Positions 48 to 64,000 of a stretch of 64,000 nt of DNA are shown here, in pieces. The stretch is from positions 21,204,001 to 21,268,000 of the forward strand of contig NC_043005.1 in NCBI RefSeq assembly GCF_006345805.1, read 5' to 3'. The notes under the pieces were generated by a model. The model was not told the DNA's origin. It made no database searches and saw nothing but the letters and a program-made list of their open reading frames with translations. The position numbers and the translations under genes are program-made. Numbering within the stretch: position 1 is the stretch's first letter; every line of letters starts with the position of its first letter. The DNA comes from Octopus sinensis. Taxonomy: Eukaryota.

Positions 48-287
48 ATATTCCAGCGAATTTTGTAAAAATAAGTAGCTCGTTTTTGGATGTATCTGGG
101 AAAAGGTTGTGGAATAAGAAAAATGTAACAGTGGAAGCCTGTGCTGACAAATGTTTGTCTTACAAAAACTGTTTATCATTTGAAGTAACTAAAAAAGGTG
201 GAAAATGTTACTTACTTCAGGGAAGTGCAGTATCCTCCACAGAAATAAAAACATCAAATACTAGAGATTACTACCAACGAGTAAAAC
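48..287 (+). CDS. Exon A1: PAN/Apple-like domain, type A (internal exon of a PAN-PAN-Sushi repeat protein)
   Basis: Acceptor attctag|AT at 47/48 (an in-frame alternative ccag at 56), donor C|gtaatt at 287/288. 240 bp, phase 1-1. Encodes ..FVKISSSFLDVSGKRLWNKKNVTVEACADKCLSYKNCLSFEVTKKGGKCYLLQGS..RDYYQRVK, with the PAN core C-x3-C..C-x-S-F..C-x-L and a terminal DYY strand. Confidence 0.88.
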
Positions 288-1874
288 GTAATTATTTTTG
301 CCTTTTATTATTGGATTCACTTTTCCTCTTTTTCTGAAATTAGTGATTCATTTATACTTCAGAGTATATTGACAAATACTTCTGTAAAAATATTGATAGG
401 CTTCATTATAAGGTTCAACAACAGGTTCAACATTGATATGTTCCTAAAAAAATAGAAAAGAAATGTTAGGGAGTGTAAATATTGTTAGTGCATTCTCACA
501 GCATTTGTTCATCTTAAACACCATTATGCATGCTTTCAATTGTTTTTTTTAATGTAAAAAAGTAAAGTGTTATTTTTCTTAAACCTGAGAAATAATAGCA
601 GCAGTAGTATAGTAGTAGTAGTAGTGGCAGCAGCAGTAGTAGCTTTATATTCATTTGTCTTTGTTGGCTTGACTTGTTACAATATGGCTGCTATTAAGTG
701 TAATAGGATTAATATGCATCTATACTATAATGGAGAAAGCTGCTTATTAATTTGGTATGTAACAATTACTAAAAGTACTAAAAAACGATTGACTTTCTGG
801 AAATATCTTTATAAATTCATGTTTTAAGAAATTTCTTGTAATTTCAATTTCTCAAGTTTCTTGAATTTTTTAAACTCCAATTACTCACATATATTCATTG
901 CATTCACTGCATCCAATTCTTCACAAATTTAAATATTCATTGCATTCACTGCAGTGTATTCCATTTTTATTTGCAAAGTCTCACTTTCTCACTTAATGCT
1001 TTCATTTCAAGTTTTAATTCACTATTTGGAAAACCGCCAGTTTATTCTGTTAATCTATACGTAATGTAAAAACATTTATTAAATGAAAATTTTTTAAAAT
1101 ACCTGTATAATTTATGTAAAAATATTTAAAAGTGATTTTGTTGTTATGGTTGTTTGGAATGCTATAGGCCTTACAATAATAACTATCCAGACTGATTTTG
1201 GCCATTTTCCATTTTAACTTAAAATCAAGGGAGGAGCAGTTTCAGTAAAAGAAAGCAAAACAATAAAAAAAATTGTAAATATTTTCAGAAGAAATGGTGA
1301 AAATTCAAAGGAGGTTTCACAGTTGTTTCTAGCACAACTCAAACAATCTTCCCTTTTCACTCTCACATGTTTTGATATTTTTTCAATATTTTTCTCCCAT
1401 TAAACACATTTCATGGAATGATTATGCTGAAGTAACACACACATAGTCCATTGGTGGAAGAAAAACAACAAAATATATTGTCATCTAAATTTTTATCCCC
1501 GCTGTCACTTTGAAGCCGCAACTTCTTCACTGACAAAACTTTGTGTTGCATCAATTTCGTGAAGTTTTGTTAGTGAACAGGTCAAGGTCTCAATGCGAGA
1601 AAAATATTTTGAAACAAATGAAATTTAAATGTTGAAGTGAAACTAACTGTTTTTGTGTTGTCTTAAATGGCTTACAAACATCTTCCATGCTGCAATTGTT
1701 TCTGTTTCAGCACACGATCTCAGATCAAGTCACTTGCTATGCAAGTATATCTCCGTAATTTTTTAAAAATCACTGTGGATAAATGTCAGCAATGACCTAC
1801 TCAGTCTCTTTGGGGGTAGGGAGTTGGGTTGCAAAAATTTCATAATTTCTTAAATATTTCATTTTTATAGCATA

Positions 1875-3540
1875 CTAGCAGAGTTACCCGGCGTTACCCG
1901 AGTTACATGCAATTGAAGAATTAGACTTTTCTGTTATATTTTCTGTAATGAACTGGAATACCTTTGTTTCGAATTTCATCAAAATTGCAGATGAGGGTGA
2001 CTTCCCTCTTTACACACCCAAACAAAATTGTAATCATGCCACATGTATCCCATACTACTGATTTTTATGCGCATATTCCAAAATTCCAGTCTTATAGAAC
2101 CTGTTAAAAGGATTTTGCTCTTGAAAAATAGAGGTCATGGAGCTCTAAAATGTGAGAGTTAGCGCTCCTATTGGGGGTGGTCATCTTAATGTCAAGCAGA
2201 GAGGTTGAATTGTCGAGAATCTTTTTAACTTGGGTCTTATATCTTTTGTTTGAATTTATTTGAAATAGGAAATATATGTTCACTGGGTTTGTAAAAGAGA
2301 GCAAAGCTACAGGAAACCAAAAGACGAATGATCACAATAAGCAGTCAGCTACAGTACCCTAGTCGTTACCACTCCCAATGTAGTATTCCTCACCATGCAG
2401 GTGATAGGCACAGCCGTGAGATGCATTACAAATCTATAGCAATTGGAAGGGCATGACCCATCTGAAATAAACATTAACAACTGTGTGACGTTAGGGCTGA
2501 GGAGGAATGAAAGTTGGAGTTTGCAAATGATACGTAACTGGACAGAATAAATATACAATCTATAAATGTCTTTGAATAAGCAGTCACTCATCTGGGAAGA
2601 CCTTGAAATCAATGTTAGCATCTGGGGACTATGTGTGACCCAGTGATAATAAAAAGACTGAAAGGAGATCTGCAATCAAATAACTATACTCAACACTTTG
2701 CAACTGAATCAGTGGAGGCAAAGATGCCTCTCATTTACTTGACAATTTATGCACCACATTGCAGAAATCACAATCTAAGTGTATGTCAAAGCAAACTGTT
2801 ACACTGTTGTACCATTGAATTACAAATAATGCTCATCTTCTATGCTTGGATAACCCAACAGCTTTCAAGAGTACAACTATTCATCTTTGCTTAGATAAAA
2901 TGACAAAATTGTGGGTGTTAAATCTCCATGAAGGGCTCTTTCTAACTTGTAAGAAGATGAAAGTTTATAAATATTACTTCATTTGTATCTAATATCCATG
3001 GTTAAAATTTTATCAAAAGGAAAAATATATGAATTGTCATGGGGGTTGTGGCCCTTATGCATAGAATATAATTTCCAAATTTTGTAAAGATCCATTCAGT
3101 ACTTTTGACTTAGTTTTGGATCATAAAAGAAATTACTAAAATGTGGAGTTAAGACCCCCATTAAGGTGTCTTAGAATCCTCATGTGAAGTGGAAACTTTG
3201 AGAATACTTCTTGATGTGCATCAATTACCCATGGTTGAAATTTCATCAACATCGAAAATTTATGAATTTTCATGGGGGGTTCTGCCCCCTTTAAGCCATC
3301 TGAAATTCAAACCAAACATATTGCATTATACCCGTCCTTATGCATTGAATCTAAGTTTCAAATATCATAAGGATCCATTCAGTAATTTTGGTCCATGAAA
3401 TTGTATGAAACACACAGCATTACCCTTCTCCCTAGGCTTCGATTTTGTGTTCCAAATTTCATTATGATTGGTGCAACACTTTTCAAATGTATAAATAATA
3501 CACGAACACATAAGGACATTGTCTTTGATATAATAAATAT
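1875..3540 (-). mobile_element. Non-autonomous Helitron-like element
   Basis: On the minus strand it ends ..CGGGTAACGCCGGGTAACTCTGCTAG|T (subterminal hairpin plus CTAG). 1875-2830 is an inverted homolog of 49530-50508. The far (5') boundary is approximate. Confidence 0.6.
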
Positions 3541-3993
3541 GAATGTACACATGTACATACATGTATATATATGTGTGTGTGTATTATATATATATATATA
3601 TATAAAGTTAATCCAAACAAGAAAACACAAAACAACAAAAAAACATATATATATATATATATATATATATAGTATATATAGTATAGGTATGTGTATAAGT
3701 CGTGGGTCTGTGGTTTACGTGTGTGTATTTGTGTGTGAATGTTTAGGTTAGGGGGATTACTATATAGGTTTGTTTTAGAGTTTAGCAAAGGGAGATTTTA
3801 TCGTTATATGTTTTTAAGAGTTTTGTTTTATCATGGTTTTTTTTAGGGAATTCGTGGTAATTTGTCTATATTTTCGATATGGATTATATATAGGTTATAT
3901 ATGGATTATATACTTATATTTTTTCATTTATACTTTAATTATTTAAAATTATTATTTTTATATTTTAAAATTTTGATTTTTTAGATTGGAAGT

Positions 3994-4036
3994 CCACCTG
4001 AAGATTGTCGATCAAGACAAGAAACGATTGTAGTGG
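3994..4036 (+). ncRNA. Minimal type I hammerhead ribozyme motif
   Basis: CCAC-CTGAAGA-TTGTC-gatcaa-GACAA-GAAA-C-gatt-G-TA-GTGG: stem I CCAC/GTGG, CUGANGA core, stem II TTGTC/GACAA, GAAA box, minimal stem III and a GUA cleavage triplet. Confidence 0.65.
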
Positions 4037-4389
4037 CGGTTTTTTTGACTATTTATTAAAATTTTATGTATTGATTAAGTCTTTCCTTGTTTGTTTTGCA
4101 AAATAGTGGTTTTGTCTCTAATAATATTTTATATATATATATATATATATGCACACACACACACACAAAGATAAATTGATAGATACAACTGAGTGGGCAA
4201 GCAAAAATATGAGACACAGCGTAGTGCTTTTTTTATGTTGATAAGCCTGGAACTTATTCTATTAGTTTGTTTTGTGAAACAAGTAAGTTATGGGGATGTA
4301 AATAAATGAACAGCAGTTGTGAAGCAGTGATGAGGGTGAAACACAAACAAAGCCACACACATACACTTAAATATATACATACATATACG

Positions 4390-4548
4390 ATTGATTTCTT
4401 TCAGTTTCTGTCTACAAAATCCACTGACAAGGCTTTGGTTGGTCTGAGGCTATAGCAGAAGAAACATGCCAAGTCACCACACAGTGGGACTGAACCCAGG
4501 ACCATGTGTTTTGGAACGAAGTTTGTTACCACACAGCCACACCTGCAC
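4390..4548 (-). mobile_element. tRNA-derived SINE, 5' portion
   Basis: Minus strand reads GGTGCAGGTGTGGCTGTGTGGTAA..GGGTTCAGTCCCAC (Pol III A/B-box-like). A related copy lies at about 48300-48420. Confidence 0.6.
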
Positions 4549-4616
4549 CTATGTATGTGTGTATGGGTGTATATATGTATGCATGTATATATGTGAATAT
4601 ATATGTGTACATATTA

Positions 4617-6003
4617 CATCATCATCATCGTTTAACGTCCGTTTTCCATGCTAGCATGGGTTGGACGGTTCGACCTGGGTCTGGGAGGGCAGGAGGCTGC
4701 ACCAGGCTCCAGTCTGATCTGGCAGTGTTTCTACAGCTGGATGCCCTTCCTAACGCCAACCATTCCGTGAGTGTAGTGGGTGCTTTTACGTGCCACCGAC
4801 ACGGAAGCCAGTCAAGGCAGCACTGGCATTGGTCACGTACGGATGGTGCCTTTTAGGTGCCAGGGTAGGCTGGCATTGGCCACATATGGATAGTGCATTT
4901 TACATGCCACCGGCACAGGTATCGCAACCACAATTTCCATTTGATTTTTGATGCTGACGTACTTAACTCAATCGGTCTCCTCAAGCACAGCAGGTCACCC
5001 TACGATCCAAGGCACTTTGGAAGGGCTGGGGCTTCTATGTGAAGCTGGTGCAGGAAACAGCCATGAACTCACATTATTTGTTGGGTCTTCGCAGTCACAG
5101 CATATCTCCAGAGGTCTCGGTCTTTCGTCATTGCCTCTGTGAGACCCAACATTCGAAGGTCATGCTTGACCACCCCATCCCATGTCTTCCTGGGTCTACC
5201 TCTACCCCGGATTCCTTCAACTGTTTGGGAGTGGCACTTCTTCACACATCTCTCCTCATCCATCCATAGTACATGACCATACCAGCGCAGACGTCTCTCT
5301 TGCATGCCACATCCAATGCTTCTTATGTCCAGCATTTCTCTCAGGGCACTTACACTCTGCCGTGTATGCACACTGACATTACACATCCAGCAGATCATGA
5401 TAGCTTCATTTCTTTCAAGTCTACGCATGTCCTCTGCAATCACGGCCCATGTTTCACTAGCGTGAAGCATGGTAGTTCGCACACATGCGTCGTACAATCT
5501 AACTTTCACTCTGAGCGAGAGACCCTTTGTCACCAGTAGGGGTAGGAGCTTTCTAAACTTTGCCCAGGCTATTCTTATTCTAGTGGTAACACTCTCTGAG
5601 CATCCACCCCCACTACTAACTTGGTCACCTAGATAGCGGAAACTATCAACTACTTCTAGTTTCTCCTCCTGGAGTGTGATGGAATCTGTTTTCTGAGTAT
5701 GAATGGTGTCTATTGCCCCAGTGCATCTGCCGCACATGAAAGCTATCTTCTTGGTTAATTTTCCTTTGATGGTTATGCACCTCTTATGTGTCCATACCTT
5801 ACACTGTGTACATCTTATGGAGTTTCTGCCTACACCTTTTCTACAGATCGAGCAGTGCCACCTACCTGAGGGGTGTGTGGAGTGTTTGCCTTCCTGCTTA
5901 CTAGGACTTTAGTCTTTGCTACATTGACTCTAACGCCTGTTGATTCTAAACCTAGCTTCCATACCCGAAATTTCTTTTCTAGTTCCGGTCGTGATTCTGC
6001 TAT
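4617..6003 (-). mobile_element. 5'-truncated RTE-clade LINE (RT C-terminus, 3' UTR, (GAT)n tail)
   Basis: ORF 5069-5737 has RTE motifs (EVVDSFRYLGD, RIRIAWAKF, RRLRWYGHVL, RGRGRPRKTW). Highly similar to 35830-37470 in the opposite orientation. Confidence 0.88.
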
Positions 6004-9000
6004 TATTTCTGCTAATATTTCCTCATCTGTCTAGTGTCCTCCAGATGCAATGAAAATACGAGAATCAGTATTTCTAATCTCAAGAAAAATTCTGTTGGAG
6101 TTCTTGAATATTGTTCATTGTACGACAACATGAGTCAACTCCATCACAAATTATAACAGAAATGTTATGATTTATGTAGAAGGTGGTACACGTAAGAATT
6201 TCCATTTGGTGTACACAGCAGAATGCATCAAGTACAACAGAAATATTAAATAAAAGCTTCAATGGGCATATGTATGATGTCTGATTCTATAACAGTAGCT
6301 TGATAGAACTAATCAAACATTTTACATCAAACAGCTGTAAATTTGAGTATCATCTGAAAGTGCACATTCCCAGGAAACATTTTAACTTTATGGCACTTTC
6401 AGTTCTTAAAACACATGAGGATAAATATCTACAGAAAAATCTGGATCATTGCAATGATGAAAACTAGTATGAACTGGTATGAGTATTTGTGCAACATGTG
6501 TTTTCACATTTTGTCTCCTTGACCAAGCTGCAAACATTGACCAAGCATCGACTGAGGGTGGACATTTCATATATAGAATGTTGCCAGGTACTCTCAGCAA
6601 TATACCAGCGAGACAAGTCAGAAACAATTGTCTGAAAAACAATTATAGATTTTTTTAGAGGGTTAATTGAGTGTATGAAAGACGGTGGCCTAGAAATGAC
6701 TCCAGGCTTCATTGTAAACAATCAGAGCAGTCTCTTCTGGATGACTTCCTGGTTTAGGTCAATTGATAACTTCAACATGTCTTTGATATGGCATTGCTAC
6801 AGGTGGTAGCATTACCTGTCTGAGGGAAGCCCTACAGTTTTGGAGTGTTCTCAGTTATTATCATTATCATCATTTATTTGGATGGATAATCAAGTTAATA
6901 CAAGAAAGTATCATAGTCAATTCATAGCCAGCAGTATCATTGTAAGCTGCTACAAAAGTAAATAAGATGCATTAGACAGAGAAAATTGTTATCATATTTT
7001 TGGATCAGGCTATGAAGGTGAGAGAGAATCATAGCACAAATGATCCACAGCAGAGTAATTTGCCTGCATGCCTAGCAGAGGCAGCATGAATGCAATCTTC
7101 CTAGTGAGAAATACTTTGCTAAATGTAAACTGCTATTTTTGACATTCATCAACAGAGTGCTATACTTTGTAATTTATTGGTTACAAAGGAAAAAATAAAA
7201 CATGTTTAGATAAATAGCTTGTGATGGCTGTTGAAGGTGCATTCGGAGATGCATTAAGTAGAGTCAACAATGATTTCACTGATAAACTAGGTTGCATAAT
7301 ATTCATTTTGATGTACACTCACAAATAAACTTCATAATGTTGAATACCAGGCTCACCAAGGTGATTGGCACTACTTTGAGGTGATAACAGGAACAAAAAT
7401 CTACCCAGAGAAGTCAGTGGGCTTGCATCTTTGTGCCTGGAGAAACAGGTCTGTGCCATCCAGCAGGATCGTGGGGAGGGATGGCTTGGAAAGATGGATT
7501 GGTTAAATTACTTGGGGGTCTGGTTAATCCCGACTTCTAGGTGTAGAAGTATTTGGATGAGATGACAAAAAGTCAGTCTCACTCAAATATCTGGCAGAGG
7601 TGAAAGCTTATATTGCTCCATTAATTACAACCACATTGTTATCATGCCTTGTGTTATTTCACATCTCACCAGGCTGGATCATCTGTTCTTTTACTCTCTG
7701 TGCAAAGAGCACATTCCACTGGTCAGGCTCTTCATTGGCTGTCATAACCTATTCCATGGCTGATGATGCAGAGATATGTGCTGAGACTCTGACATATCCA
7801 AGAATTCTTTGATAGTGAATATATGTGGTTACTGTTTGCCAAAGAGATAAACTGTGGAAGAACAACTTAGCTTTTTTTGAGAGCTGCAGTTCTGGATCAA
7901 ACAAAATCAAGACAGAGTGCATGGCATCTGGAATGCTGTGAAGTACTGCTATTCTTCAAACATTTCCATTTTTGCATCCTATAAAAATTTATTTCAAGGC
8001 AAGAACATCAATTGTCACAGGGAAATACTGTGTCAATGCAAATCTACTATTTGTTTGATCTGTTCCAGAAAAGCTGCAGCATCTGGTCTGCGGATGATTT
8101 CCAGAATTCCTTGGCCTGGCATCACTACCAGTGGGAATTGTCAGTTCATGATAAACTTTACTTGGATAGTAGAATCCAAGATGCATGAAAAGTGAGGAAA
8201 CTCTTCTGCATGCAGTTATCCAGTGCTTTACTATTGGTAACTTGCAAAGTTAAGTCAAACACTTAATTTCATGTGTAGAACAGATCCAACTATCAGCTGA
8301 GTCTATCATGAAGATCATCCTACTGCCTTGTTTTGGCTGGGAAAGACAAACAATCTTTAAAAGTCTGGTGGCTTTAGCAACAAATGTTTTTGTGGTGGAC
8401 GGGATTGAAAGAGCTGAAGACAGACATTTTTCTATTTGGTTAAGCTCACAGTGCTATCCCTCAGCAAATTTATTGAAAGAGAATGTTCCAGCTTTGAATT
8501 TGTGTCTGTAGATTAGAGAAGGATACTGGATGAGGCACATCCTTAGTGGTCGGGGTGGCCATGATTCTGTAGGCTTTCTATGAATAATACAAGGAGGCTT
8601 CCCATCCTTTAGGGAATTATTACTTTTTACTTGAAATTTTTGTTTCTTTTTTTCTGTTATTTTACAATTTACATGCTCTTTTATTAATCTCACATATCAT
8701 CCTTTAGCTTCCCCAATGTTTTTGAGTACCCTTAGTGATTACTAAAGAAATGTTGTTATTGTTATTATTTTATATAAAAAATTTTAAATGTTATACAATT
8801 ATGTAGAAGTAAATTTCATGTAAATGAAATTTTAAATAAAATATGAGAAAACCATTTGATGCATTCTTTTTTAAATGGACAATTTATCATAAAATCACAA
8901 TCCATTCACAAGATTAGTTTTTGGCTGACACCCTTATCAAGAATTACTGTGGATTCTTTTACATTACAAGACTTTCAAAATTTTGCTAGAATGTTTCAGT

Positions 9001-9412
9001 TTTAGATAATCCATTTGTATATCCCACTTTTGATGGTGTGCTTTTGTTTAGGATTAAATGGTTATATCAACACTTAGCATATTGGTTGACCATATGTTTA
9101 AGGGATTATTAATCTTATAGAATTACACCAATAGAGAAGAGATGTACAAATGAATTACCTGCAACCTAAATATTAAAACAAGGTTTTAAGTAAGTCTCAA
9201 AATGTTCTGTTGCTCACACGAATTCTTGCTACAGTATCATTTAGTGAATTGGTAATTCAAATATAATATATTGTCCTTTTACAAAATTATGCACTTCATG
9301 CTTTATAATGTTTAGTTACGTGTGTGTGTATGTGAGAGAGAGAGAAAGAGAGTGAGAGAGACTAAGTACAACTGAGTATAAAATGTATTCTTTTCCTTTC
9401 TTTTTCTTTAAG

Positions 9413-9613
9413 CCAAAGATAAACCCAGTACAGCTGATGATCAACCGCCTATGGATGAAAATGTAAAGAGATGTTATCAAACTTGCCTTAATTATGTAGG
9501 ATGTAGATCATTTGAGTACAGTGAAATAATGAATGCTTGTCATTTGAGTAATGTGACTCGCTTGACATATAAAATTAAACTTGATAGTATATCCGGTTCT
9601 AATGCTAAACCAG
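9413..9613 (+). CDS. Exon B1: PAN/Apple-like domain, type B (divergent, shortened)
   Basis: Polypyrimidine tract plus tttaag|CC acceptor, donor G|gtcagt. 201 bp, phase 1-1. Encodes KDKPSTADDQPPMDENVKRCYQTCLNYVGCRSFEYSEIMNACHLSNVTRLTYKIKLDSISGSNAKP. Upstream intron is homologous to that of the other B exons. Confidence 0.8.
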
Positions 9614-9689
9614 GTCAGTGGAAAGTTTCCATTTTATTTATTGTGTGCATGTTTGTATGTATTGATAAATATATATTTATATATATGCT

Positions 9690-10080
9690 CATCAGAACTG
9701 CAATGTTGTATAGTAGTGAGGCATGTACTGTGAACATAGAGGATGTTAGAAGATTGGAAATAAATAAAGTAAGCATACCCCTTTGGGCATGCACTGTAAG
9801 TGTACATGAATAACATAGTATAAAAATGCTGTGTGAAAAACTAGGCCTAAGAGAAATCAGATGTAGTGTTCAAAAGAAAAGTTTGCACATGCAATGCATA
9901 TGGATGAGGTCAGATGTATAAAGAAATGCTGATCATTAAATGTAGCAAGGGCTTGTGGACGACATGGATGTAGAAGACATGAGACAAAGAGAAGGTTGAC
10001 CTCAAAATCTGAGCCTCACAAAGTAGATGACACAGGAATGAGATATCTGGTCATACATAATTCTTGGGAGAACCTACCCA
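9690..10080 (+). mobile_element. Degraded RTE LINE fragment
   Basis: RTAMLYSSEACTVNIEDVRRLEINK matches the RTE C-terminal region seen at 36350-36450. Confidence 0.65.
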
Positions 10081-10477
10081 TCATGCCAAAACTGACTTTT
10101 GGAAGCACTGTGTGTGTGTGTATGTGTGTATACAAGGTGTCTCAAAATTAAGGCAACCAAAGTTTTGAGTTTTAATAACTATAAATAAGTTGTGGTAAGA
10201 TATGAAAATTATACATCATTATAAAAGGTTAGCATGTCTTCTTTTTGTTTCAGACTAAATAAATTCAGATTTATAAATTAGACTAGCTACTTTGACCCGT
10301 GCTTTGCTCGGGTTTTGGTGGTGGTGTTGTTTTGTGCGTGTTGTCTCCTTTTCCCTTTCTGCTTTTGTTCATTACATCAAGATAAACACAGAGCTGAAAT
10401 CTCTGGACATGTAGGGAGTCTTGGTGTAATATGCTAAATTGTTCAGCGATATCAACTTTGGATGCACCACCAATATA

Positions 10478-11331
10478 TGAGATCTGATCAATAAGTATCC
10501 GGACTGTTGCCATAGTAATGAAGCTAAAGTCTGCAGAGTAAAACCACTTTACAAAAATTGACCTTGAACTCTGCTGTGCATGCACACTAAGTTTTAACAT
10601 TCTAGCTAATTTCTGTTGTTTACAGCAGTGCTTAGAAGGAAGGTGTGTAGTGTATGATAGTTGCATTGACCTTGACAGAGGCCTACAGAAAGTTGCAGAA
10701 AACGTATGGAGAGGAGTGTATGAGCCGCACACAAGTGTACAAGTGGTTCAGACATTTCCAAGATGGCCAAAAACTTGTTGATATTGACAAATATTCTGGG
10801 AGACCTGCAACCAGCAAAACTGAGAAAAACATCATAGCTGTGAGGGGAAATCATCGAATCGCCATCTGTGAGTTATCAGAGGATGTGCAGATTAGTTACA
10901 GTTCAGTTCAATCCGTTATCACTGAAGATTTGTGTATATGAGACATGTGTCTGCCAAGTTTGTTCCAAAACTGCTTTCATCTGACCAAAAAGACACTCGG
11001 GGTTTCAGTTGCCCAAGATCTTGATTGTGTGGAGAAAGATGAAAACGTTTTGAAAACTTTGCATAGGCCTCTGAGCAGGTATTGCCAAGCTTTTGGCAAA
11101 ATTTGATGCAGATTCACTGCTCTACTTTCTCTATCATGGCCAATGCAACAATCACACACTACACACGTTCCTTCCAAGCACTGCTGTATACAGCAGAAGT
11201 GAGCTAGAATGTTAAAACTTAGTGCTCATGCACAGCAGAGTTCAAGGTCAGTTTGTGCCCAGTGGCTTCACTGTGCATGCTTTAGCTTCATTACTATGGC
11301 AACAGTCTGGATACTTATTGATCAGACCACA
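10478..11331 (+). mobile_element. Internally deleted mariner element with about 200-bp terminal inverted repeats
   Basis: TA|TGAGATCTGATCAATAAGTATCC.. and ..GGATACTTATTGATCAGACCACA|TA. Inverted homology runs about 10478-10670 versus 11140-11331. Internal transposase HTH fragment TEAYRKLQKTYGEECMSRTQVYKWFRHF..SGRP..VSAKFVPKLL. Confidence 0.85.
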
Positions 11332-12260: not shown

Positions 12261-12356
<96 letters not shown>

Positions 12357-12367
12357 ATATATATATA
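12261..12367. repeat. (TA)n microsatellite
   Basis: About 100 bp of TA repeats; source of the IYIY ORFs. Confidence 0.95.
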
Positions 12368-51974: not shown

Positions 51975-52145
51975 TTTTCCTGTCTGTTGACTGTGGACCT
52001 CCAAAAGATGTAGGTGGTGCATTGAAATCCTATAAAACTACCACCTTTAAATCTGAAGTGTTGTACACTTGTGAAAATGGAGACCAACTTAAGTCGACTT
52101 GTGAAAGGAACAGCAGATGGTCTCCTGTTGTGGATGCCTGTAACG
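51975..52145 (+). CDS. Exon S4: Sushi/CCP domain
   Basis: tttcag|TT acceptor, G|gtaaca donor. 171 bp, phase 1-1. Encodes FLSVDCGPPKDVGGALKSYKTTTFKSEVLYTCENGDQLKSTCERNSRWSPVVDACN. Confidence 0.88.
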
Positions 52146-53347
52146 GTAACATAAATAGAGTCCCTTTTGTCATATATGTAATTTTTTTATATGTTTGTAT
52201 TAATAGACACATCTGAAATTTGACTAGTGATCGTCATTACTGTCGCTGCCACCATCTGCAGTTGTTTTCAGCTTAAGAGGCAGAGAGAAATAGGTTTGCT
52301 AAGAAATATAAGATGAGGAGAAATTTCCCTCAAGGGGAGAGAATTGCTGTGAGAGAGATTTTATTTTTTATATACTTATTTTATTATGTGAGTAGATATT
52401 TCTATATAATTCACTCTTTTTTTTTTATATTTTGGTTGTTCTAGTAGCTGCAAGTAGATGCAGATAAATTCATTCCACTCTGATTTGGAGCTTGTCAATG
52501 CACCACAACTTGGGATAAAACTACACGGTCATTTAAAACATTTAGGAACTGTGTAAACTATCGACTTATCTTTTTTTTTTGTTTGTTTTAAATAGTAGAG
52601 AAAAGTGGTGAGAGAGTGAGGACATTAAAAGCCCAAGTCACAATTGAGATTAACATTATGCAAATTACAATCGATATGTTCTATTTTTTTGCTTTTAACA
52701 GTGGAGGAGAGCTTAACTGATAGAAAGTATTAATGTTATCGATAAAAGACTATTAAAATGAGTTGTTGTATACTGTTAACATAACGTGACAGTCCTGTAT
52801 GGGAATTACACCAACACTGTTTCGCTTGTGAAATTCTTTTGTGCGATATTATAATCACAAGGAATACTCATGTCAGTCAATAAACAGACTTTATTGTTTT
52901 GACCTTTCACAACAATATCTGGTTTATTAGCTTTGATGGTTTGGTCTGTATGTAATGGAAAGTCCCAAAGAACCATTACCATTTCTCCCTCAGTTACAGT
53001 CTCAGGGTGGGGATGTATATCACTTGTCAGCAGTTTTGATTTTATAATTCTGACATATTAACCAATGTAGATATTAGCCAACTCTGTCATGTCTTGATTT
53101 ATACTCCACTGGTCCTAAGATTTTTACACCTAGAGATTTGGTGGGATACTGTTTCAGTCATATCATTGCAGAATCAGCATGTTAAATCTACTCTGTTTTT
53201 TATCACATTGGCTTGGTAGTTCTTGGTCAATAAGCTTTGATCTTGTGCACCTAAAATGAAGTCTTCACTCTCTGCCTGTAGCCTTGAACTCCTTAGACAC
53301 TAATAGGTATTATCATAATTGTAATAATAATTATTATTATTATTATG

Positions 53348-53555
53348 CCAGCCCCGTCTGGCATCTGTGCGGGTGGCACGTAAAAGCACCCACTACATTC
53401 ACGGAGTGGTTGGCGTTAGGAAGGGCATCCAGCCGTAGAAACACTGCCAGATCAGACTGGGCCTGGTGCAGCCTTCTGGCTTCCCAGACCCCAGTTGAAC
53501 CATCCAACCCATGCTAGCATGGAAAGTGGACGCTAAATGATGATGATGATGATGA
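53348..53555 (+). mobile_element. Isolated RTE/SINE 3' tail
   Basis: GGCACGTAAAAGCACCCACTACA..GGGCATCCAGCCGTAGAAACACTGCC..(GAT)n. Confidence 0.75.
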
Positions 53556-53559
53556 TTAT

Positions 53560-54100
53560 TATATGTTTGGATTTTGCTTTGTATTTGTACATGTTGACTC
53601 CAAGTCTCATCCAGACAACAAGTTAGAAAATTAAAGTCGGGGTACCATATTTTTGGTTTTGCACTAAGTATTGTTCTAGATAGTGTCTGTCAAAACAAGA
53701 AAATTAAAAGTTTTTTCTAAAAGTAATTTGATGGTAAGAATACAGTAAAAGGTATTTGCTATTATGTACATTCAAAAGCACTTTTGATAATGTTCAAATG
53801 AATATCCTGGTATCTGAGACAAGGAGCAGTCAGCCCCTTTTGTTAACATCCCTGGGGTGCCTATGACAAGAGGTATTGGTCTAGTCTTCAGGTTCTACAT
53901 TATTACCAATTTCTTTTCCAAAATCTTTATATTTTCTGTTTTTAGTAGGTCTTGACAGATATATTTATGTTGATTAGGACAGTGATATTGATGAGGAGGC
54001 ATGATTTTTATCTGAGATCCTTCAGTATAATTTCTGGCTTATTGGCATCTATCTTTGTCTGAGATCCTTCAGTGTAATGTCTGGCCTATTTGCATCTATT
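53560..54100 (-). mobile_element. R4/Dong-like REL-endonuclease 3' fragment
   Basis: Minus strand IDANRPDITLKD / IDANKPEIILKD (locally duplicated, about 46 bp), plus a TIPLVIG-like motif. Confidence 0.5.
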
Positions 54101-54928
54101 ATTATTTAAAGCGGCAAGCTGGTAGAATTGTTAGCACACCAGGCAAAATGCATACTAGTGTTTCGGCTATCGCTACAATCTGAGTTTAAATTCTGCTGAG
54201 GTCGGCTTTGCTTTTCACCCTTTCAGATCAATAAATTAAGTACCAGTGAAACACTGGGGTTAATGCAAACAATTTATCCCTTCCCCTCAAAACTGTTGGC
54301 CTTGTGCCAAAATTTGAAATTATTATTGTTATTATTATCATCAAGTGTGAGAGCAGTATATGCCATCAAAGTGGCACTGGAGTACAAATATACAAAGCCC
54401 AATATACCCATCATGACTTCTTGTCTGATAAGGGTACAGCAGGCACATGCATCACAACTGTATGTGCATGACATGGTGATTTCATATCAAAATAAACAGC
54501 ACATGACCTTGCAGGTAAGACCCAGTTAGAATTTTCTTCAGGTCAAGTAGCTCATCCTGCTCAAAAAGTCCCTGAACAAGGATTATGGAATTTGAATAAA
54601 ACACCCATGTTTCCTGAGGTGAATTATTCAAACACCAAAGAATTCCTCTCAACACATGGCTATGATGCTTCCCAGCTACTTCTGCTCATGATCAGAGATG
54701 CACATATTGTAAGCCACCAAAGGACATGCTTAACTGATTAAGATCAAGCAACTAACAAGCAAATTTGTGATATTGAACAGAATATTTGCTGTAGCCCATC
54801 TTTTACATCCAGAAAAAACATGCCCATATTATTATTATTATTGTTGTTGTTACTGTTATTGTTATTGTTGTTGTTGCTATAGTAATAGTTGTTGTTTTTC
54901 ATTCATCTAAATTTTTCTCAAATTCCAG

Positions 54929-55168
54929 TTTCTATATTACATTTTGTGAAAATAAAAAATGCACTACTAGATGTACCCAAGAAAACATTGTTGGAGAAGA
55001 AAAATGTAACACCAGATGCCTGTGCAGAAAAATGTTTGTCTGACAAACGCTGTTTATCATTTGAAATAATTGAAAAAAGTGGAAAATGTTACTTATCAAA
55101 GAAAACTGCAGCTACCTCCAAGAAAATAAAACCATCCAAACACAGGGATTATTACCAACGAGTGAAAT
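54929..55168 (+). CDS. Exon A4: PAN/Apple-like domain, type A
   Basis: aattccag|TT acceptor, T|gtaatt donor. 240 bp, phase 1-1. Encodes SILHFVKIKNALLDVPKKTLLEKKNVTPDACAEKCLSDKRCLSFEIIEKSGKCYLSKKTAATSKKIKPSKHRDYYQRVK. Confidence 0.88.
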
Positions 55169-55439
55169 GTAATTGTTATTTGTATTTTATTATAAGAATA
55201 CTCTTTTCCACTTTTTGTAAAATTTGTGATTCCATTCGAAATTGGCGATATATAGACAACTGTGAAGATTTGACAGGTTTACCTAGAGGACAAATGAAAA
55301 AAATCAAAGGCATATTAAGAACTGTAAATACTGTTATGACATTCTTATGCCAAATTTGTTCACCTTGAAAAGTTTTATTGCATGCTTATAATTGCATTTT
55401 TATGTTAGAAAGGAAACTCATTTTGTTTTTCTTAAACCT

Positions 55440-55625
55440 GAGTAATAGTAATAGTAGCAGTAGCATCAGTGGTGGTGGTGGTGGTGGTGGTGGTGGTAGT
55501 GGCAACGGCAGCTGCAATAGTGGCTATGGTGGTAGCAGGAATGTTGGTGGTGGTTGCAGTGGTAGCAGTAATGTTGGTGGTAGTAGTGGTGGTGATGGCA
55601 ATACTAGTAGTAGCAGCAGCAACAG
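55440..55625. repeat. Compound (AGT/GGT/AGC)n microsatellite
   Basis: Trinucleotide runs 3' of exon A4, in the same relative position as 596-643 and 44174-44212. Confidence 0.85.
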
Positions 55626-56099
55626 CTCTTCATTTGTCTATGTTGACCTGGCTCAGATGGTACGATTATAGCACAGTGTCTCACCACTAGTTGCTGTCCT
55701 TCAGAATCCAATATACAAAATAACAGAAAAAGCAATGCCAATTTATGAAATTGTATATATATATATATATATATATTTGTCATGGTTAATGTAACAAGAT
55801 GCTCTTCCTATCACCACATGAAGAGAGTACATTTTCCCATGCTACTAAGATTTGAGAAATAGTCTGCTGGGACTAAAGAATTCTCTCTGCCTAAAATTAG
55901 CTTCTATTCAGAATAGTTCCAGAGTATTAAGAACTGAACAGCCAGCAAATTCACTCAAGTTTATTTCAAGAAGTTTGTCCTTTCCTGTTGAAATCTTTAA
56001 ACATCAAGGGAATTTCACTGAATTGTTGATCTCAGTTTTAGCATACTTGTGTACACTAGAATGTCATTTCTACAAAGATTAACTTTTCCGGGTTAAAAA

Positions 56100-56900
56100 G
56101 AAAAGCAAGCCATTTCTCTGTATATCTATGAGGATGTTTAACAGAGATGAAATTGCAGACCTCACTGCAATATTTATCTTGTGCACATTAATGAAATTCA
56201 AGTACATTCACAGATCAAGTTTATATAGAGAAAATAGCCTGGCAATTTCAATAAGAAGAAGAGCCATACCATGAATCAATTTAGGAAGAAATTGACATGA
56301 ATCTTCAAGAAGTTTGATTTAAACAAAATGACTACCACCAACCTAACTACATTCAACAAAGTGGACATTATTTTAGACATGAAATCAGGTATTAAACATA
56401 TAATACTCCTACAGAAAGCTTAAGAAGGAGCACAAACACCTTCATAGGTATTTCAACTACTTCTCCCAAGCTATAATAATAAACTTAGTGACTGGTATAT
56501 TATAGAATCATCACTTTCTCCATCGATAAATATATTTCTGACAGCATTTTTTACAGTGCAAGGTGTTAAGATTGACTTCAGTGAGAGGTTAGAATGAACA
56601 GAGCATTTTCCACTACCACACCTGAAAACAATGAGAAAGAGGTTAAGTTGATTCGATCCACCCTTCAACCTAAATAACAAGGGGATGTTTTCATGTATTA
56701 CAAACATTTTTCAACCACACAAAAGTACCACAAACTTATGAATGTGTATATTGTTATGGTTTATTACACATGTGTAGGTTAAATGACATCCAGCATTGTA
56801 TGTTTCGATAGAAAATGCATACACTTATCCAGGCTTTATCCCAGTCACCCACCTGTAACTACCAAAATCAATCCATCCTTCTTCTAAGAGAATTCTACTT
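56100..56900 (+). mobile_element. Degraded Penelope-like RT remnant
   Basis: A GxxRDD-like motif at about 56131-56150 and FDPPFNLN at about 56651-56675, comparable to the PLE at 24180-26800. Confidence 0.4.
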
Positions 56901-57491
56901 TTCTATAACAGTGGTTTATAGAGCAGCTCTTATTCTATGTATAAGGGAAGGAAGGTTCATTATACCAGCTGAGTATCACCTTCTCCCATTAAAATTATTT
57001 TCTGTCTTAAGGATTCTGGATGGCAAAAGAAGAAGCTCGTGAGTGGCTGCAATTCAATAATTGTTTATTGTGATTCCCGATCTTGTGTCCTGTTCTAGGT
57101 GTCCATCTTCATGGCAGTGTATGGCTTGTGATATCTCCATTCACATGAAGTACATTACCTCTGGAGAATAACATACATGGCTAGAGCGGGTTAGAATCTT
57201 CTGTAGCTGCCTGCTTTGTAGTGTCACTCAGTGTAAGCAAGCTGGAGAAGACTAAGAGGTTGAATGTCTTTTGCACCAGCTTAAATATCCATTGTTGAGG
57301 ATGGCCTCATTGCGGTGTAGTGCATGGCAATGGTTGTACGCGATATCTCGCTCTTGTCTTGGACAACATAATGGCTGCCACGAGGTCTTGTTCAAAATGG
57401 CACTGGCTACTTGTGCCACACTACATATGTTATAGTTTCCCAATGAATTACATGGGACTCACAACCAATGACTTCAAGGAAATTTTCACTC

Positions 57492-58620
57492 GGCTCATTG
57501 GAGGGTTGGCTGAAAAGTTCATAAGTTGATCAAGATATTCTCATGGAATGTGGCCAAATGAGGTTTATTTTTCAACATACTCTCCCTTGCGGTCCACAGA
57601 CTTCTATAGCTGTTGCAGTGCTTGGATCCCATTTCTAAAGAAAATTTCATCCTATTGGTCAAAAAAGTCTTCAACAGCAGGCATGTCATCATCTCTGTGA
57701 TATTCATTCCCAGCCAAGTGTTTTTTTTTTCATGTTGGGAAACAGATGATAGTTAGATGGGGTCAAATCAGGAGAATAGGGAAGCATATCAACTAGTTGT
57801 ATGCAGCAGTCATTAAAAGCAAGGACTTGTGTGCTGGAGGATTATTCTGATGAAACAAACCACTTTCAGTTTCCCTGGATGTTCATTTTTATAGTCTTTT
57901 GTAACTGCCTCAGGAAGCTGGCATAGAAATCTCCTTTGATGGTGTGGCCCTTTTGAGGACAGTCAATTAACACAACGCCTTTTGTATCCCAAAATGCTAT
58001 GGTCATCACCTTCCCAGCAGATGAAATGATCTTGGCCTTTTTTGGAGCAGGTCTCTTTGTCTCCGGCTCAAAGTAATGAAGCCAATACTCATCCTCAGTT
58101 AGCAAACATTCAAGGAAACCAGCTGGATTTGTCCCAAACAATGTCAGATTTTCCCATGATGTCATCAAACTGGAACACTTTTGATCAGGTGTCAGAAGAT
58201 GTGGCACCCACAAAGTAGAAACCTTCATCATGTCAAGTTCATTAAGCAGAATATTCTCAACTCTATCATGGGATATGCTAATAGCATTAGCTATTTGATT
58301 TAAAGTCAATCACCTGTCATCGATCACCATGTGGTGAATACAATCAATGTTTCCCTCAGTGGTGGCAGTTGCAGGACACCTAGATCTTCTGTCATTTTCA
58401 AGACTCATTGTTCTCCTCCTAAATTCAGCTGCTCACATTTGCACTGTTGATAAAGCTGGAATATCATTCCCTAATATAGCAGACATGCCAGTATGACAGT
58501 CAATGGGGGATAAACCCTTTTTTTGCAGGTACTTGTAAACAGCACAATGCCAAATTTTGTCCATTTTCAAAAGAAGTCACTACTTGTTACTTTTGAAGTC
58601 TTCTTTGAACATTCAGATGT
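57492..58620 (-). mobile_element. Degraded mariner transposon
   Basis: ORF 57866-58309 has KVSTLWVPHLLTPDQK, LTEDEYWLHYFEPETKR and SAGKVM..FWD (mariner WVPHxL motif and the region of the first catalytic Asp). TIR-like GAGGGTTGGCTGAAAAGTTC at about 57500. Confidence 0.85.
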
Positions 58621-58772
58621 CAATTTACCTTGCAAAATTATGCCATTAGAGAGAAGAGATGTACAAATGTATTGTCTAGAATCTAAGTAATGAGACAAGA
58701 TTTCAAATTAGTCTGAAGATGTTCTACATCTGACATGAATTCTGATTATGGAGTAATTTTGTGAATCTCTTA

Positions 58773-59814
58773 TCTATATATATATATAAGGCAGGATGTG
58801 TGTGTGTGTGTGTACGTGATTGTAATTTATGCACATCCACAAATTAGCACGCATGTCGCTCCAATTTTAGGAGGACATTCGTCAACATCCTACCTGGTTT
58901 TTGTCAACTTATTTTTTGCTAAACAGATACAGGTAAAAATCTATTTTCAGCCATTGCTTTTACCGATTTTGAAGGTTGCTAACATGAGTTAAGTTCCTTC
59001 TAGCCATAGCCAAGCGAAAATGTGAGTGTGAGGGAGAGAGAGAAGTTGTGTGCTGATGTATGTGTGTGTGTGTGTGAGGGAGAGTGTTTCACAATGTCTA
59101 ACAAAAATAGTAAAGAAAAAGTATGTGTAAAGAAGAGAGGCAGAGGGTTTGACAGCGATCTAACAAAAAAAGTGGTAAAGACAAAGTGAGAGAGTGAGGG
59201 GAGGAGGGAGAGTTAGTCACAGCATTCATAAAAAATAAAATGTAAAATGTTTTGTTTTTTCTTAAACACGAGATATAGTGTTCAAATTTAGGATGTTTTT
59301 GAAAGACACTATATTTTATAATCAGAGTATATATACTTTCTTGCACAACAATTACAATATATTTATTTATTTTAAATCGTTCATCTTTCTCCCCCATCTC
59401 CCTCACACATATATTACTTTGGGTGCGAAAGAGTTTTCTTTTTATTTTACGCCATCATTTATTTATTTTAAATCGTTCATCTTTGTCCCTCCCCTCTCTC
59501 TCACACATATTACTTTGGGTGCAAAAGAGTTTTGTTTTTATTTTACGCTGAGTAAAAAAGTGTTTTGTTGAGAATCCATTTATTTAACATATCATCACTG
59601 CCTTTCAAATATCTCATGAACATTACAAACACCTGACAGCAGAGCCTTCAAGTATATAACAGAAGTTATCTTTATTTCCTTAAATAACCCTATTAATTTC
59701 AACAGATTTTGCCCACATTTGACGTCGATATTACTTAGTTTGGTTTGAAATAAAAAACTTGATTAGCTTAATAATCATAACTTAATCCCGAGCAAGGCCG
59801 AGTTATACTGCTAG
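58773..59814 (+). mobile_element. Non-autonomous Helitron with both termini
   Basis: A|TCTATATATA.. at the 5' end and ..CCCGAGCAAGGCCGAGTTATACTGCTAG|T at the 3' end. Inserted between A and T with no TSD, splitting the conserved pre-B-exon flank. Internal tandem duplication of about 96 bp at 59361-59548. Confidence 0.8.
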
Positions 59815-59958
59815 TTTATAATAAATTGTCCATTTACATAATTATGTGTGAAAATGCTTTACAATATCTAATATATGAGTGGTGTCTGCATGGATGTGTA
59901 TGTGTGTGTTTGGTAGTTGGATAAATATAAAATGTATTTCTTTTCTATTTTTGGTCAG

Positions 59959-60183
59959 ATGATGGGAAACCTATTAAATTTATAAAAGTTACATTACGAA
60001 AAAGAGATATTTTTGGACGGCTTAAGAATAAGAACTTAAAGGAGTGTGATCAAGCTTGCCATGACTATCCAGGATGTATTACTTATGAATACCATGCGAA
60101 AGATAAGTTCTGTGACCTGAGTAATGAGACTCATTATCTTATACCCAATGGTGTAGGTTGGGAAACGTACCTCATAAATAAAG
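59959..60183 (+). CDS. Exon B4: PAN/Apple-like domain, type B (not in the ORF track)
   Basis: ggtcag|AT acceptor, G|gtcagt donor. 225 bp, phase 1-1. Encodes DGKPIKFIKVTLRKRDIFGRLKNKNLKECDQACHDYPGCITYEYHAKDKFCDLSNETHYLIPNGVGWETYLINK. Confidence 0.86.
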
Positions 60184-60311
60184 GTCAGTAGTATTTCCAT
60201 GTTATTTATAGCATACATTTGTGTATACTTATATACTCATATAAGTATATATGTATATAATGTATCATATCTATCTATTTTCTCTCTCTCTCTTTCTCTC
60301 TGCATATACAA

Positions 60312-60395
<84 letters not shown>

Positions 60396-60402
60396 CCTAT
60401 AT

Positions 60403-61050
60403 ATCATCATCATCATCATCATTTAACATCTGTTTTCCATGCTGGCATGGGTTGGAAGGTTTGACTGGGGAATGGTAAGCCAGGAGGCTGCACAGGGCTC
60501 CAATCTGACCTGTCACTGTTTCTACAGCTGAGTGCCCTTCCAAATGCCAACCACTCCGAGAGTGTAGTGGGTGCTTTTTACGTGCCACTGACATGGGAGC
60601 CAGTCTGGCAGCACTGGCATTTGCCACGTTTGGATGGTACTTTTTACATGCTACCGGCACAGAAGGCAGTCAGAGCAGGGGTTGCTGGCATTGACCACAC
60701 TTGGATGGTACTTTTTACATGCCACTGGCTTGGGGAGCCAGTCAGGCAGCACTGGTAATGACCGACACATGAATGGTGCTTATTGCAAGCCACCAGCATG
60801 AGAGCCAGTCAGTGATTGTGATTTTGATTTACTTGACTCAATTGGTCTCCTTAAGCATGGCATGTTGCCCAGTGATTCAAAGGTACTTTTTAAATAGGCT
60901 GGTTATGTGACACTGGTGTAGCTATGACTGTGATCTCACTTTCTTTGCCGGGTCTTCTCAATCACAGTATATCTCCAGAGGTCTTGGTCTTTTGTCATTG
61001 CTTCTGTGAGGCCCAACATTCGGAGGTCATGCTTCACCTTCTCATTCCAT
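60403..61050 (-). mobile_element. RTE LINE 3' end with UTR repeats and tail
   Basis: (CAT)n followed by TTTAACATCTGTTTTCCATGCTGGCATGGGTTGG..; homologous to 4617-5190. Confidence 0.8.
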
Positions 61051-61069
61051 GTCTTCTATATATATATAA

Positions 61070-62292
61070 GAAGTTGATTTGGAGAAGGTGTTTGATAGTA
61101 TTCCAAAGAAGGTGATTGAGTAGGCATTGACAAAGAGAGGTGTACTAGAGGTAATAGTGAGGGCAGTGATGAATTTGTATGAGGGAGTAAAGAGAAGAGT
61201 CAGAATTGGATCAGAGCTGTTGGAGGAGTTTGCAGTGAAAGTTGTTGTGCATCAGGGATCTGTTTGTGGTGACAGAGAGTGCAAGAGAGGGATTGATAAT
61301 GGGGATACTGTATGCAAATGACCTTGTTCTGATGAATAAGATGATGGAGGGATTGAGGGAGAAGTTTTGGAAATGGAAGGAGGTGTTTGAAAGCAAGCAT
61401 TTGAAGGTAAACCTCGAGAAGATAAAGGTGATGGTGAGCAGAGTGGAAGAAGTGTTAGTAAGGTGGATCCATGTGGTGTATGTGGGAGGAGGGTAATGGC
61501 AAATGCAGTGTTGTGTACGAGATGTGAGAAATGGATTCATGGTAGATGTACAAAAATGAAGAAGGTGACCCCCAAGACTGGTGAGAGAGTTTGTTTGTGG
61601 AAGATGTAAGAAAGGAGCTGGAGGGCTGGCAAAACTAGTGAAAATGCTATGTGATGAGGTGGAAATGGTGAGAGGGTTTTGTTACTTGGGAGATAGGGTG
61701 GATGTAAGTGGTAGATGTGAAGCAGCTGTGACAGCAAGAGCGAAACTTGACTGGGTGAAATTCAAGGAATGTGGAGCAATGTTATATGGGAAAAGGTCCT
61801 CATTATAGATGAATGGAAGGGTATATAAGAGTTGTGTGTGAGCTGCAATGTTGTATGGGAGTGAGACATGGTATCTGAGAGAGAGAGAGATGGTAATTTT
61901 GAGAAGGATTGGGAGAGAAATGGTGAGAGAAATATGTGGGATGAAGCTGTTTGATAAGAGGAGAACTGAGGATTTGATGATAATGCTGGGGTTGGAGGAA
62001 TCAGTAGAATGGTTGGCAAGAGTGAATGGAATGAGGTGGTTTGGGCATGTGTTGATGAGGGATGGAGAGTATGTTCAGAGGAGGGTGATTGCATTTGAGG
62101 TAAATAGAACACAAAAGCAAGGTAGACTGAGGAAAAGATGGAGGAGATTGGAAGGATTGGTTTGAGAAAAGAGGATGCCCAAAACCGGGCAAGATAGTGT
62201 GTGTGGGTGGTTGCTATAGCATTGAGGTAGATACGGCCATCTCTGTTAATGGAGACAAAACCCAGATTTAAAGCATTGAATGATGATGATAA
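61070..62292 (+). mobile_element. Degraded RTE LINE (different subfamily)
   Basis: VVVHQGS, ILYANDLVL, FCYLGD, MLYGSETW and MRWFGHVL motifs; short (GAT)n tail at about 62280. Confidence 0.85.
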
Positions 62293-63913
62293 TGACTTAA
62301 TAGCCCTACTGGATGAAATAATTGCAAGGTGATAACTAAAGTTATCTGAGACATGGACTTTTTCATCTTGATAAGTATATATTTTGTCTAACAAAATTAC
62401 TGTATTTTCTGAGGTATTTTCAAACATATTCAAAAATCCAGATGATTGGAATGCTTCGAGATTCACTGCAGTCCTAAAAGATTTTCAATTTAAATTTTTT
62501 TGTGGTTTTTAAAACCATATTGAGTGACTCAGAGATTCTGTTTTTGATTCTTTAAAGAAGTTTGCTTGATGTTTCAAGGTGTATTTATGAGGTTGAGAAC
62601 TTCAAAAAACAATAGGTTGATACTGTCATGGTAGATGTATTTGTTGTATTCATTGTGGTGTGAGATTAGGCTTGCTGCATATATTACAAACAGAAGCAAA
62701 CTCTTGAATATTTAACATCAGATTTAAGGGAAGGATGAACCTGAATACATACATAAATCATCAAATCGTCATTGGTAGAGAGACTAGGAATTAGGGATCG
62801 ACTTAACTGTGATTGCTCAGCCATTAGTTATCTTCAAGATGCAAGACTTCCAAATCTTGTTGAAACTTTGTCCTTGATATGCTAGGTGAGAGCCGAGTTA
62901 TGTTTTCTTCAGATGCCATGAGGGATCAGGTTGATACTTAACACCAAACTGCCTAAATGAAGAAAAGGTGTGAACCCAAGGAAACTTGAGATGATGTTCT
63001 ACCTGGAAGTGTACTCTCCTGCAAACTGGTTGGTTAAACAAAAGTGGTGTCCATCTGAAGATTGCATGTCCCAACTGTGGTTCACTTATGAGAGTGAACT
63101 GATAATTTAGTGAAATGGGTTCAAATCCTAGGGCTCACTGCAATATCAAGAACAGCAAGTTTGAAGAATTTTACCACCAGGTTTTGGATGGTGTTGCTGA
63201 ACTATCAGAGAAGTGTGGTTAATGTCAAACATCCAAGAAGTCACAGACATAATATTGGTGCTTGAAGTAAATCAGTTTCTGGCCAAAGTAATAAAATTTT
63301 CGTCTGATTCTAACCATACCTGCCACATCTGCTTCCTGAGAGAAATTGCTTTCTTCATTAAAGTGAGTAAATAATTACATGAGGTGTTCTCAAAGTGAAG
63401 AAGAGAGATTAAGTAATTTGGTCTTCATTTCCATGAATAAAAGAACTTTTGAAGAAGATGAAGGTAGAGTGTGGTGCTGATACATTTTATATCAAAATGA
63501 TCAATGAATCTACCAAAAAATATCAAGAATTGAACTGATTTACAAATAGATTTTAAGGAGCTCATTGTTTGTAGGTTCTATTATTTTCTCAGATTTCTGT
63601 CATAAAAAATAATGGTCATCATGGCAGGCCCATCACTAGAATATTGCTAATGGGGGAAAATCATGTCCAGCAGAGAGGAGTATCAAGCCCAAAGTGTAGC
63701 CTGTTGATGGAAGTACATTTCCTCACATTAAAATTATTTCATGTCACATTCACTGATGGAGTGGGGTTAGGTTTTGGTGAGTGGAAGAGTAAGGCTCCAC
63801 TTCCCCAGTTTCTGCCTAGGTATTAGCTTGTATTATAGGCTGCACACCCTGATTTCTAAGTTACCCTTTTCCACTGGCTCACAACTGATAACAATTTCTC
63901 CTTTCCATTCCAG

Positions 63914-64000
63914 CTTACACAAAAGTTGACTGTGGACCTCCAAAAGACATTGCTGTTGCAACAAAATCCTACAAAACTACTTCCTACAAATCTGAAGTGA
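63914..64000 (+). CDS. Exon S5: Sushi/CCP domain (cut by the window edge)
   Basis: ttccag|CT acceptor, phase 1. Encodes YTKVDCGPPKDIAVATKSYKTTSYKSEV.., clearly paralogous to S1, S2 and S4. Confidence 0.85.
   Translation, partial: LTQKLTVDLQKTLLLQQNPTKLLPTNLK

Follow-up and report, generated by a model that had tools for sequence, protein, structure and literature searches.

A 101-unit PAN-PAN-Sushi exon array in Octopus sinensis, likely a single giant gene related by descent to a small GON-domain gene

Results

The window lies inside a probable very large modular gene

We analysed a stretch of 64,000 nucleotides from Octopus sinensis contig NC_043005.1 (here C9; the stretch, C9:21204001-21268000, is referred to as the window), which carries exons for three classes of extracellular module, PAN-A (A), PAN-B (B), and Sushi (S). 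The window proved to contain units 43-46 of an array of 101 units, one unit being of the A-B-S type, and this array is likely part of a single undescribed, very large modular gene. We are moderately confident that this gene encodes a giant secreted A-B-S chain, joined mostly in order and ending in a GON domain.

The original prediction described 13 one-domain exons in the window in the order A-B-S-S-A-B-S*-A-B-S-A-B-S, and this observation is confirmed. All 13 were found in place (Table 1) and have an AG acceptor, the complete intact exons (11/11) are in phase 1-1 and have lengths that are multiples of 3, and the class-typical donors gtaatt and gt(c/t)agt are present in 4/4 A exons and 4/4 B exons, respectively. 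Against Pfam, PAN_1 scored above the cut-off in all eight A and B exons; the Sushi assignment held by this measure in two of the three intact S exons, S2 being without a Sushi match at E<=0.1. The atypical short form of B1 recurs in models of both O. bimaculoides and O. vulgaris. As had been expected from the window, the array extends past both of its edges, with ~0.77 Mb lying upstream and ~0.80 Mb downstream.

The array lies between one start and one GON end

When the own genome was searched with one exon per class, the plus strand of C9 held 103 A, 101 B, and 128 S matches in the interval 20.35-22.05 Mb; every one of the 128 S matches fell on this strand of C9, and the remaining matches were a few weak ones on other contigs. 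With profiles made from the exons, a scan of 1.85 Mb that includes the window and contains no N returned 338 plus-strand matches and one weak minus-strand match. When the best-scoring splice sites were picked without a phase constraint, the acceptor was in phase 1 in 330 of the 338 matches and the donor in 331, a dominance that excludes chance. These matches correspond to 336 distinct places, namely three exons of a small upstream gene, two partial duplicates, which were dropped, and 331 array exons; in the final exon list two acceptors and one donor were set by hand. The array exons (101 PAN-A, 102 PAN-B, and 128 Sushi) lie on one strand of one contig, with GT at all donors and AG at all acceptors. 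They are arranged as 71 ABS, 26 ABSS, two AB, one ABSSS, and one ABBSS units, with 101 AB, 99 BS, 99 SA, 29 SS, one BA, and one BB junctions.

An ATG exon and a mini-exon sit 2.2 kb and 1.3 kb, respectively, before the first array exon. Both are in phase 1 and paralogous to those of the small gene (72-73% DNA identity including flanks), and the signal peptide of the giant gene is assigned by this homology and by eye. At the other end, the first of four GON exons scores 47 bits against PF08685, and on C9 this domain was found at two places only, behind the small gene and behind the last array unit. Together, the giant locus comprises 337 coding exons with 70,536 nt of coding sequence as assembled over a span of 1,632,537 bp, and ~23,500 aa is the length predicted from the summed exons.

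We conclude that the 331-exon array likely forms one gene. Databases divide it into many models in three Octopus annotations (uncharacterised, SVEP1-like, or ADAMTS20-like), and in most modules the exons are matched at 95-100% by proteins carrying the names Octopus sinensis and O. vulgaris. Read literally, these many models placed over the array would represent several separate genes, which we consider very unlikely. Their ends often run into intron-like sequence, and most have neither a signal nor a terminal domain; blastn and nhmmer found no further signal-exon or mini-exon copy inside the array, and no internal GON copy is among the C9 GON matches. Moreover, the introns have a median of 4.1 kb and a maximum of 21.6 kb, as against the gap of 71 kb to the real upstream gene. 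The SVEP1 and ADAMTS9/20 names of the fragments were rejected; metalloprotease/TSP1 or vWA/EGF/pentraxin domains are absent from the Pfam lists of the array models, and Pfam reports PAN, Sushi, and GON, without EGF or ZP, for the terminal model P0005.

The locus grew from a small neighbouring gene

The small gene (C9:20341797-20366745, 465 aa) is complete, has the architecture signal-PAN-PAN-Sushi-GON, and lies on the same strand 71 kb upstream of the giant gene. It is the orthologue of GON-Abd-1 (UniRef R4G2C1) of Abdopus aculeatus, at 82-83% per module. The GON-Abd-1 type and the giant gene have the same domain order and exon layout and differ in the number of units, one (465 aa) versus 101, whereas the cuttlefish relatives, including GON-Sep-2, are Sushi-GON or PAN-Sushi-Sushi-GON only. 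By descent, the giant locus is a member of the cephalopod GON-domain proteins. GON-Abd-1 itself reportedly comes from the work of Ruder et al. 2013 on venom glands. In the accessible part of an O. vulgaris salivary-gland proteome, the protein group containing R4G2C1 is represented by 18 peptides at 43% coverage (PMC7693380 Table S1 row 1238), and giant-gene ids and motifs were not found among the rows listed from that supplement.

The introns retain traces of how the units multiplied. The A-B and B-S introns of the array match the corresponding introns of the small gene. The S-to-A introns are chimeric: their 5' part matches the S-GON intron of the parent (up to 46/99) and a stretch further 3' matches its exon2-A intron (up to 63/99), both at ~70% identity and on the same strand, the signature of unequal crossing-over within a duplicate of the small gene. 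These comparisons show an origin of the giant locus via repeated intragenic duplication of a signal-A-B-S-GON gene. In units 1-33, the mean distance at an offset of four units is 0.16 vs 0.24 for A and 0.19 vs 0.33 for B; this four-unit periodicity is less marked in units 61-101 and missing from units 34-60. Such distances show a later phase of growth through duplication of four-unit blocks.

Models of O. bimaculoides map mostly in order onto the array, with a mean identity of 79-90% per class versus 86-88% for the small gene. Multi-unit proteins turned up only under Octopus names. There are also unnamed single-exon proteins that are 51-84% identical, some of which match a single unit clearly better than the rest, and these hint that arrays may be present in more distant octopods. 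Distant PAN-A/PAN-B-like exon pairs were seen at 18.8-19.2 Mb and 64.9 Mb of contig C13 and at 23.72 Mb of C17, and among the database proteins that have pairs of this kind are WSC-domain and zonadhesin-named models.

Predicted properties of the product

Fold prediction covered the PAN-A class, and the B and S classes were judged by profile and cysteines. The PAN-A model (pLDDT 93) has TM scores of 0.79-0.86 to the HGF N-domain and the plasminogen PAN domain, and the PAN-B profile matches the apple domains of MIC4 and SML-2. In fold or profile the array PANs are like the HGF N-domain, plasminogen, Toxoplasma MIC4, and Sarcocystis SML-2, but those proteins carry one to few PAN domains while the giant gene has 203. 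The titles of PDB entries refer to heparin binding by HGF NK1 and to a galactose complex of SML-2. Net charge per module is +7.2 for A, -0.4 for B, and +2.6 for S, with a total of +994, and the predicted chain contains 261 N-glycosylation sequons. Towards its N-terminus, GON is similar to the fibrillar collagen C-propeptide (COLFI, under the cut-off; PDB 5k31 at E 1e-4 with P0009), a resemblance that hints at a possible role in assembly.

We suggest that splicing of the array would largely follow exon order and yield a message of ~70 kb, and that the product, with its signal-type start, ~23,500 residues, and GON end, would be secreted. It would form a disulfide-stapled string of roughly a micrometre (estimated at 3-4 nm per module), with a net charge of ~+1000, mostly on the HGF-N-like PAN-A domains, and ~260 N-glycan sites. 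As a multivalent binder, such a chain may cross-link polyanions or glycans by avidity and provide the scaffold of a gland secretion or of the extracellular matrix. Because all exons are in phase 1-1, some length isoforms made by exon skipping are likely, as in Dumpy. In a bolder version, which we offer tentatively and regard as doubtful, a salivary-gland protein would have turned into a 337-exon, 1.63 Mb gene for both a 2.6 MDa secreted filament and a large repertoire of secreted binders, the latter produced by regulated skipping among the 331 fast-diverging modules, which preserve the frame and lie between a constant start and a constant GON end.

Frame and fold are preserved in the array

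Intact exons make up 326 of the 331 in the array and nonsense codons occur in none of the 331, while ~430 stop-making changes would be expected if the exons were neutral (a rough figure from 162 disjoint pairs). At least four cysteines are kept in every intact exon, with four in 99/99 A exons and at least four in 102/102 B and 125/125 S exons. Fold and frame are preserved, and the surfaces vary freely or are diversifying.

Several observations weigh against an in-order giant chain. First, five exons are frameshifted as assembled by indels of 1-4 nt, several next to homopolymers, and any real frameshift would truncate a constitutive chain. In models of sister species three of the five are open, one is uncovered, and one is covered only in part in O. 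vulgaris but is the best match of a full O. bimaculoides module. At S3, DNA runs X8 and X9 have low depth and gave no indel among the rows listed. Both runs carry, at full depth, one extra base at intronic window position 38307, so that small assembly or allele indels do occur in the region. Second, amino-acid divergence between units is near neutral, with pN/pS of 0.82-1.03 using a four-fold-site spectrum and 0.5-0.9 by NG86; these selection figures are pairwise counts. Sixteen PAN-A sites show an excess of change, some near 2 (uncorrected Poisson test), and this excess suits diversifying recognition and relaxed constraint equally. Third, O. vulgaris gene models omit many of the exons, possibly through annotation errors. 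Fourth, the ligand class proposed above is a prediction from fold and charge only. Finally, no spliced read, transcript, or peptide of the giant gene was obtained. A run search over window positions 51900-55300 listed no RNA run; two contig-type runs presumed to be RNA (X1 and X2) gave no cover over S3, A3, and B3 within 33300-47375, a result that carries no weight in either direction, and X1 has a share of 0.10 at S4 and A4.

The five frameshifts and a pN/pS near 1 would also suit a silent or decaying duplication array. Given zero stops where ~430 are expected, the kept cysteines, and a conservation of orthologous modules equal to that seen in the expressed small gene, we consider this reading extremely unlikely.

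Choice among skipped, selected, and in-order exons

A possibility that we take seriously, while holding it unlikely overall, is that the array is one gene that is rarely or never expressed at full length, with blocks skipped by tissue or stage to give signal-(ABS)k-GON proteins that differ widely in length and surface. All modules being in phase 1-1 would permit this, real frameshifts would be tolerated, and surface sites diverge fast; in addition, the internal exons of Dumpy are nearly all divisible by 3 and yield tissue-specific skipped isoforms (PMC2930355). Such skipping sits less easily with splice sites that are uniformly canonical, with the lack of a nonsense-bearing exon among 331 and the occurrence of only two partial fragments, and with a unit order preserved between species.

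The original prediction had left open two readings, a very long beads-on-a-string secreted protein and a Dscam-like set of cassettes, and is partly supported as a whole: the signal-type exon and the GON end favour the first reading, with a protein far larger than could be seen from the window, and the second is not supported. Stated explicitly, the second means that each transcript would take one or a few cassettes of A, B, and S type and link them to a common signal exon and GON, giving up to about a million versions of the 465-aa architecture. The single constant start and end, the one-unit parent as a viable short product, and the ~100 diverged versions per class with some fast sites are what such a system might have. 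However, same-class exons are not grouped; the classes are interleaved in protein order, with A followed by B in 101/101 cases and same-class neighbours limited to 29 S-S and one B-B. Complementarity between a constant intron and exon flanks reached at best 26 flanks, versus up to 39 for introns of the small gene, and docking/selector pairing did not rise above the small-gene control within flanks of 500 nt, where short or G-U-rich pairing could escape. Shared intron stretches are ~70% identical on the same strand, as expected of duplication relics, super-repeats and S-S doublets are kept, and no dead stop-bearing cassettes were found. We therefore regard Dscam-like choice as quite improbable. 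A conserved intronic element upstream of A exons was considered as a selector and rejected as a duplication relic because it is on the same strand, ~70% identical, and located within longer homology to the parent intron.

Other features of the region

Table 1 Positions of features in the window (window coordinates) and in the giant locus (C9 coordinates)
Feature	Position	Strand	Remarks
Whole window, inside proposed gene	1..64000	+	
A1, PAN-A exon, unit 43	48..287	+	240 nt, phase 1-1; PAN_1 4.7e-9
B1, atypical short PAN-B exon, unit 43	9413..9613	+	201 nt
S1, Sushi exon, unit 43	13054..13224	+	171 nt
S2, second Sushi-class exon of unit 43	18632..18802	+	171 nt; clearly S class, Pfam match absent alone
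A2, PAN-A exon, unit 44	23098..23337	+	240 nt
B2, PAN-B exon, unit 44	29542..29775	+	234 nt
S3, Sushi exon, unit 44	33375..33544	+	170 nt, frameshifted as assembled; open in O. vulgaris model P0004
A3, PAN-A exon, unit 45	43660..43896	+	237 nt
B3, PAN-B exon, unit 45	47128..47361	+	234 nt
S4, Sushi exon, unit 45	51975..52145	+	171 nt
A4, PAN-A exon, unit 46	54929..55168	+	240 nt; model pLDDT 93
B4, PAN-B exon, unit 46	59959..60183	+	225 nt
S5, Sushi exon, unit 46	63914..64000	+	cut by window edge; 171 nt in genome
First exon from ATG	C9:20437578-20437632	+	55 nt, hydrophobic stretch, phase-1 donor
Mini-exon	C9:20438539-20438568	+	30 nt, phase 1-1
Array of A/B/S exons	C9:20439834-22050281	+	
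Four GON exons ending in stop	C9:22057217-22070114	+	
Frameshifted exons	C9 20547150, 20861419, 21237375, 21940098, 22040303		

Judged by eye, the window introns contain decayed LINE-type reverse-transcriptase elements (34170-36770 and 61120-61610 on the plus strand, 5070-5910 and 31330-31820 on the minus strand), the first of which has very high read depth, a broken gypsy-like retrotransposon with RNase H and integrase-like frames (40930-42930, plus strand), and a mariner-like remnant (10650-11100). Tandem repeats are present at 46516-46733 (29 bp x 7.6) and 49044-49346 (61 bp x 4.9). Of the intron open reading frames (ORFs) of at least 260 aa (n=40), most look by eye like LINE, mariner, or gypsy-like sequences.

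Elsewhere in the locus, two introns hold partial copies of an adjacent exon, one of an A exon at C9:21314640 (L105; 123 bp, 99%) and one of a B exon at C9:21326784 (L106; 78 bp, 94%). At C9:22034706-22035311, the 132-nt intron that separates the penultimate A exon among the open units from its B exon is in frame and stop-free (275-aa ORF) and, if retained, would add 44 residues. At C9:22096125, 26 kb past the GON stop, an open frame with a signal-peptide-like start probably represents exon 1 of the following gene.

Discussion

The original prediction recognised no characterised protein with this repeating trimer. That holds for the array itself, and has to be narrowed in that the one-unit parent is the GON-Abd-1 orthologue and array fragments are present in databases. 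We found no description of the locus in the open literature, subscription papers and bioRxiv supplements lying outside this search. By word search, GON or PAN is not mentioned in 10.64898/2026.04.09.716377, PMC13252362, PMC12607849, or PMC7656900, and the accessible part of PMC10081198 contains nothing on the giant gene.

If spliced in order, the product would be among the largest extracellular proteins, and the gene among the most exon-rich, of any animal, with a Dumpy-like predicted size and an exon count close to that of titin. With the one-unit parent adjoining it and chimeric introns within it, the locus would illustrate cleanly how a giant protein can evolve from a small one made in a gland. 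The splicing of a 70 kb message whose 336 introns are near-identical could also be tested on it directly, and its product is a candidate for a structural role in a secretion or matrix of the octopus.

Comparison with known giant and modular systems

Dumpy of Drosophila has ~23,000 aa and 2.5 MD (PMC8520396); its disulfide unit of three modules is repeated, the lengths of its internal exons are multiples of 3, and its transcripts are alternatively spliced (PMC2930355). The giant gene is like Dumpy in predicted size, triad repeat, and frame-preserving exons, and its fixed A-B-S order and four-unit super-repeats suit a giant chain of the Dumpy type. Dumpy, however, is built of EGF-DPY-EGF modules with a ZP domain and a membrane anchor from 78 exons, whereas the giant gene has PAN-PAN-Sushi units, a GON end, one exon per domain, and 337 exons, and a search for a transmembrane exon in the giant locus found none. 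The likeness is one of analogy, not homology, and the giant gene stands outside the Dumpy family.

In Dscam1, exons of the same class are grouped, selection involves docking/selector pairing, and the product is a membrane receptor. The giant locus resembles Dscam1 in having many paralogous one-domain exons between constant ends, but none of these three features was found in it, the pairing being compared within 500-nt flanks. Apolipoprotein(a), titin, and nebulin grew by tandem duplication of exon blocks and show super-repeats; titin, with ~363 exons, and nebulin are intracellular. The giant gene appears similar to these three in its mode of growth and differs from them in its domains.

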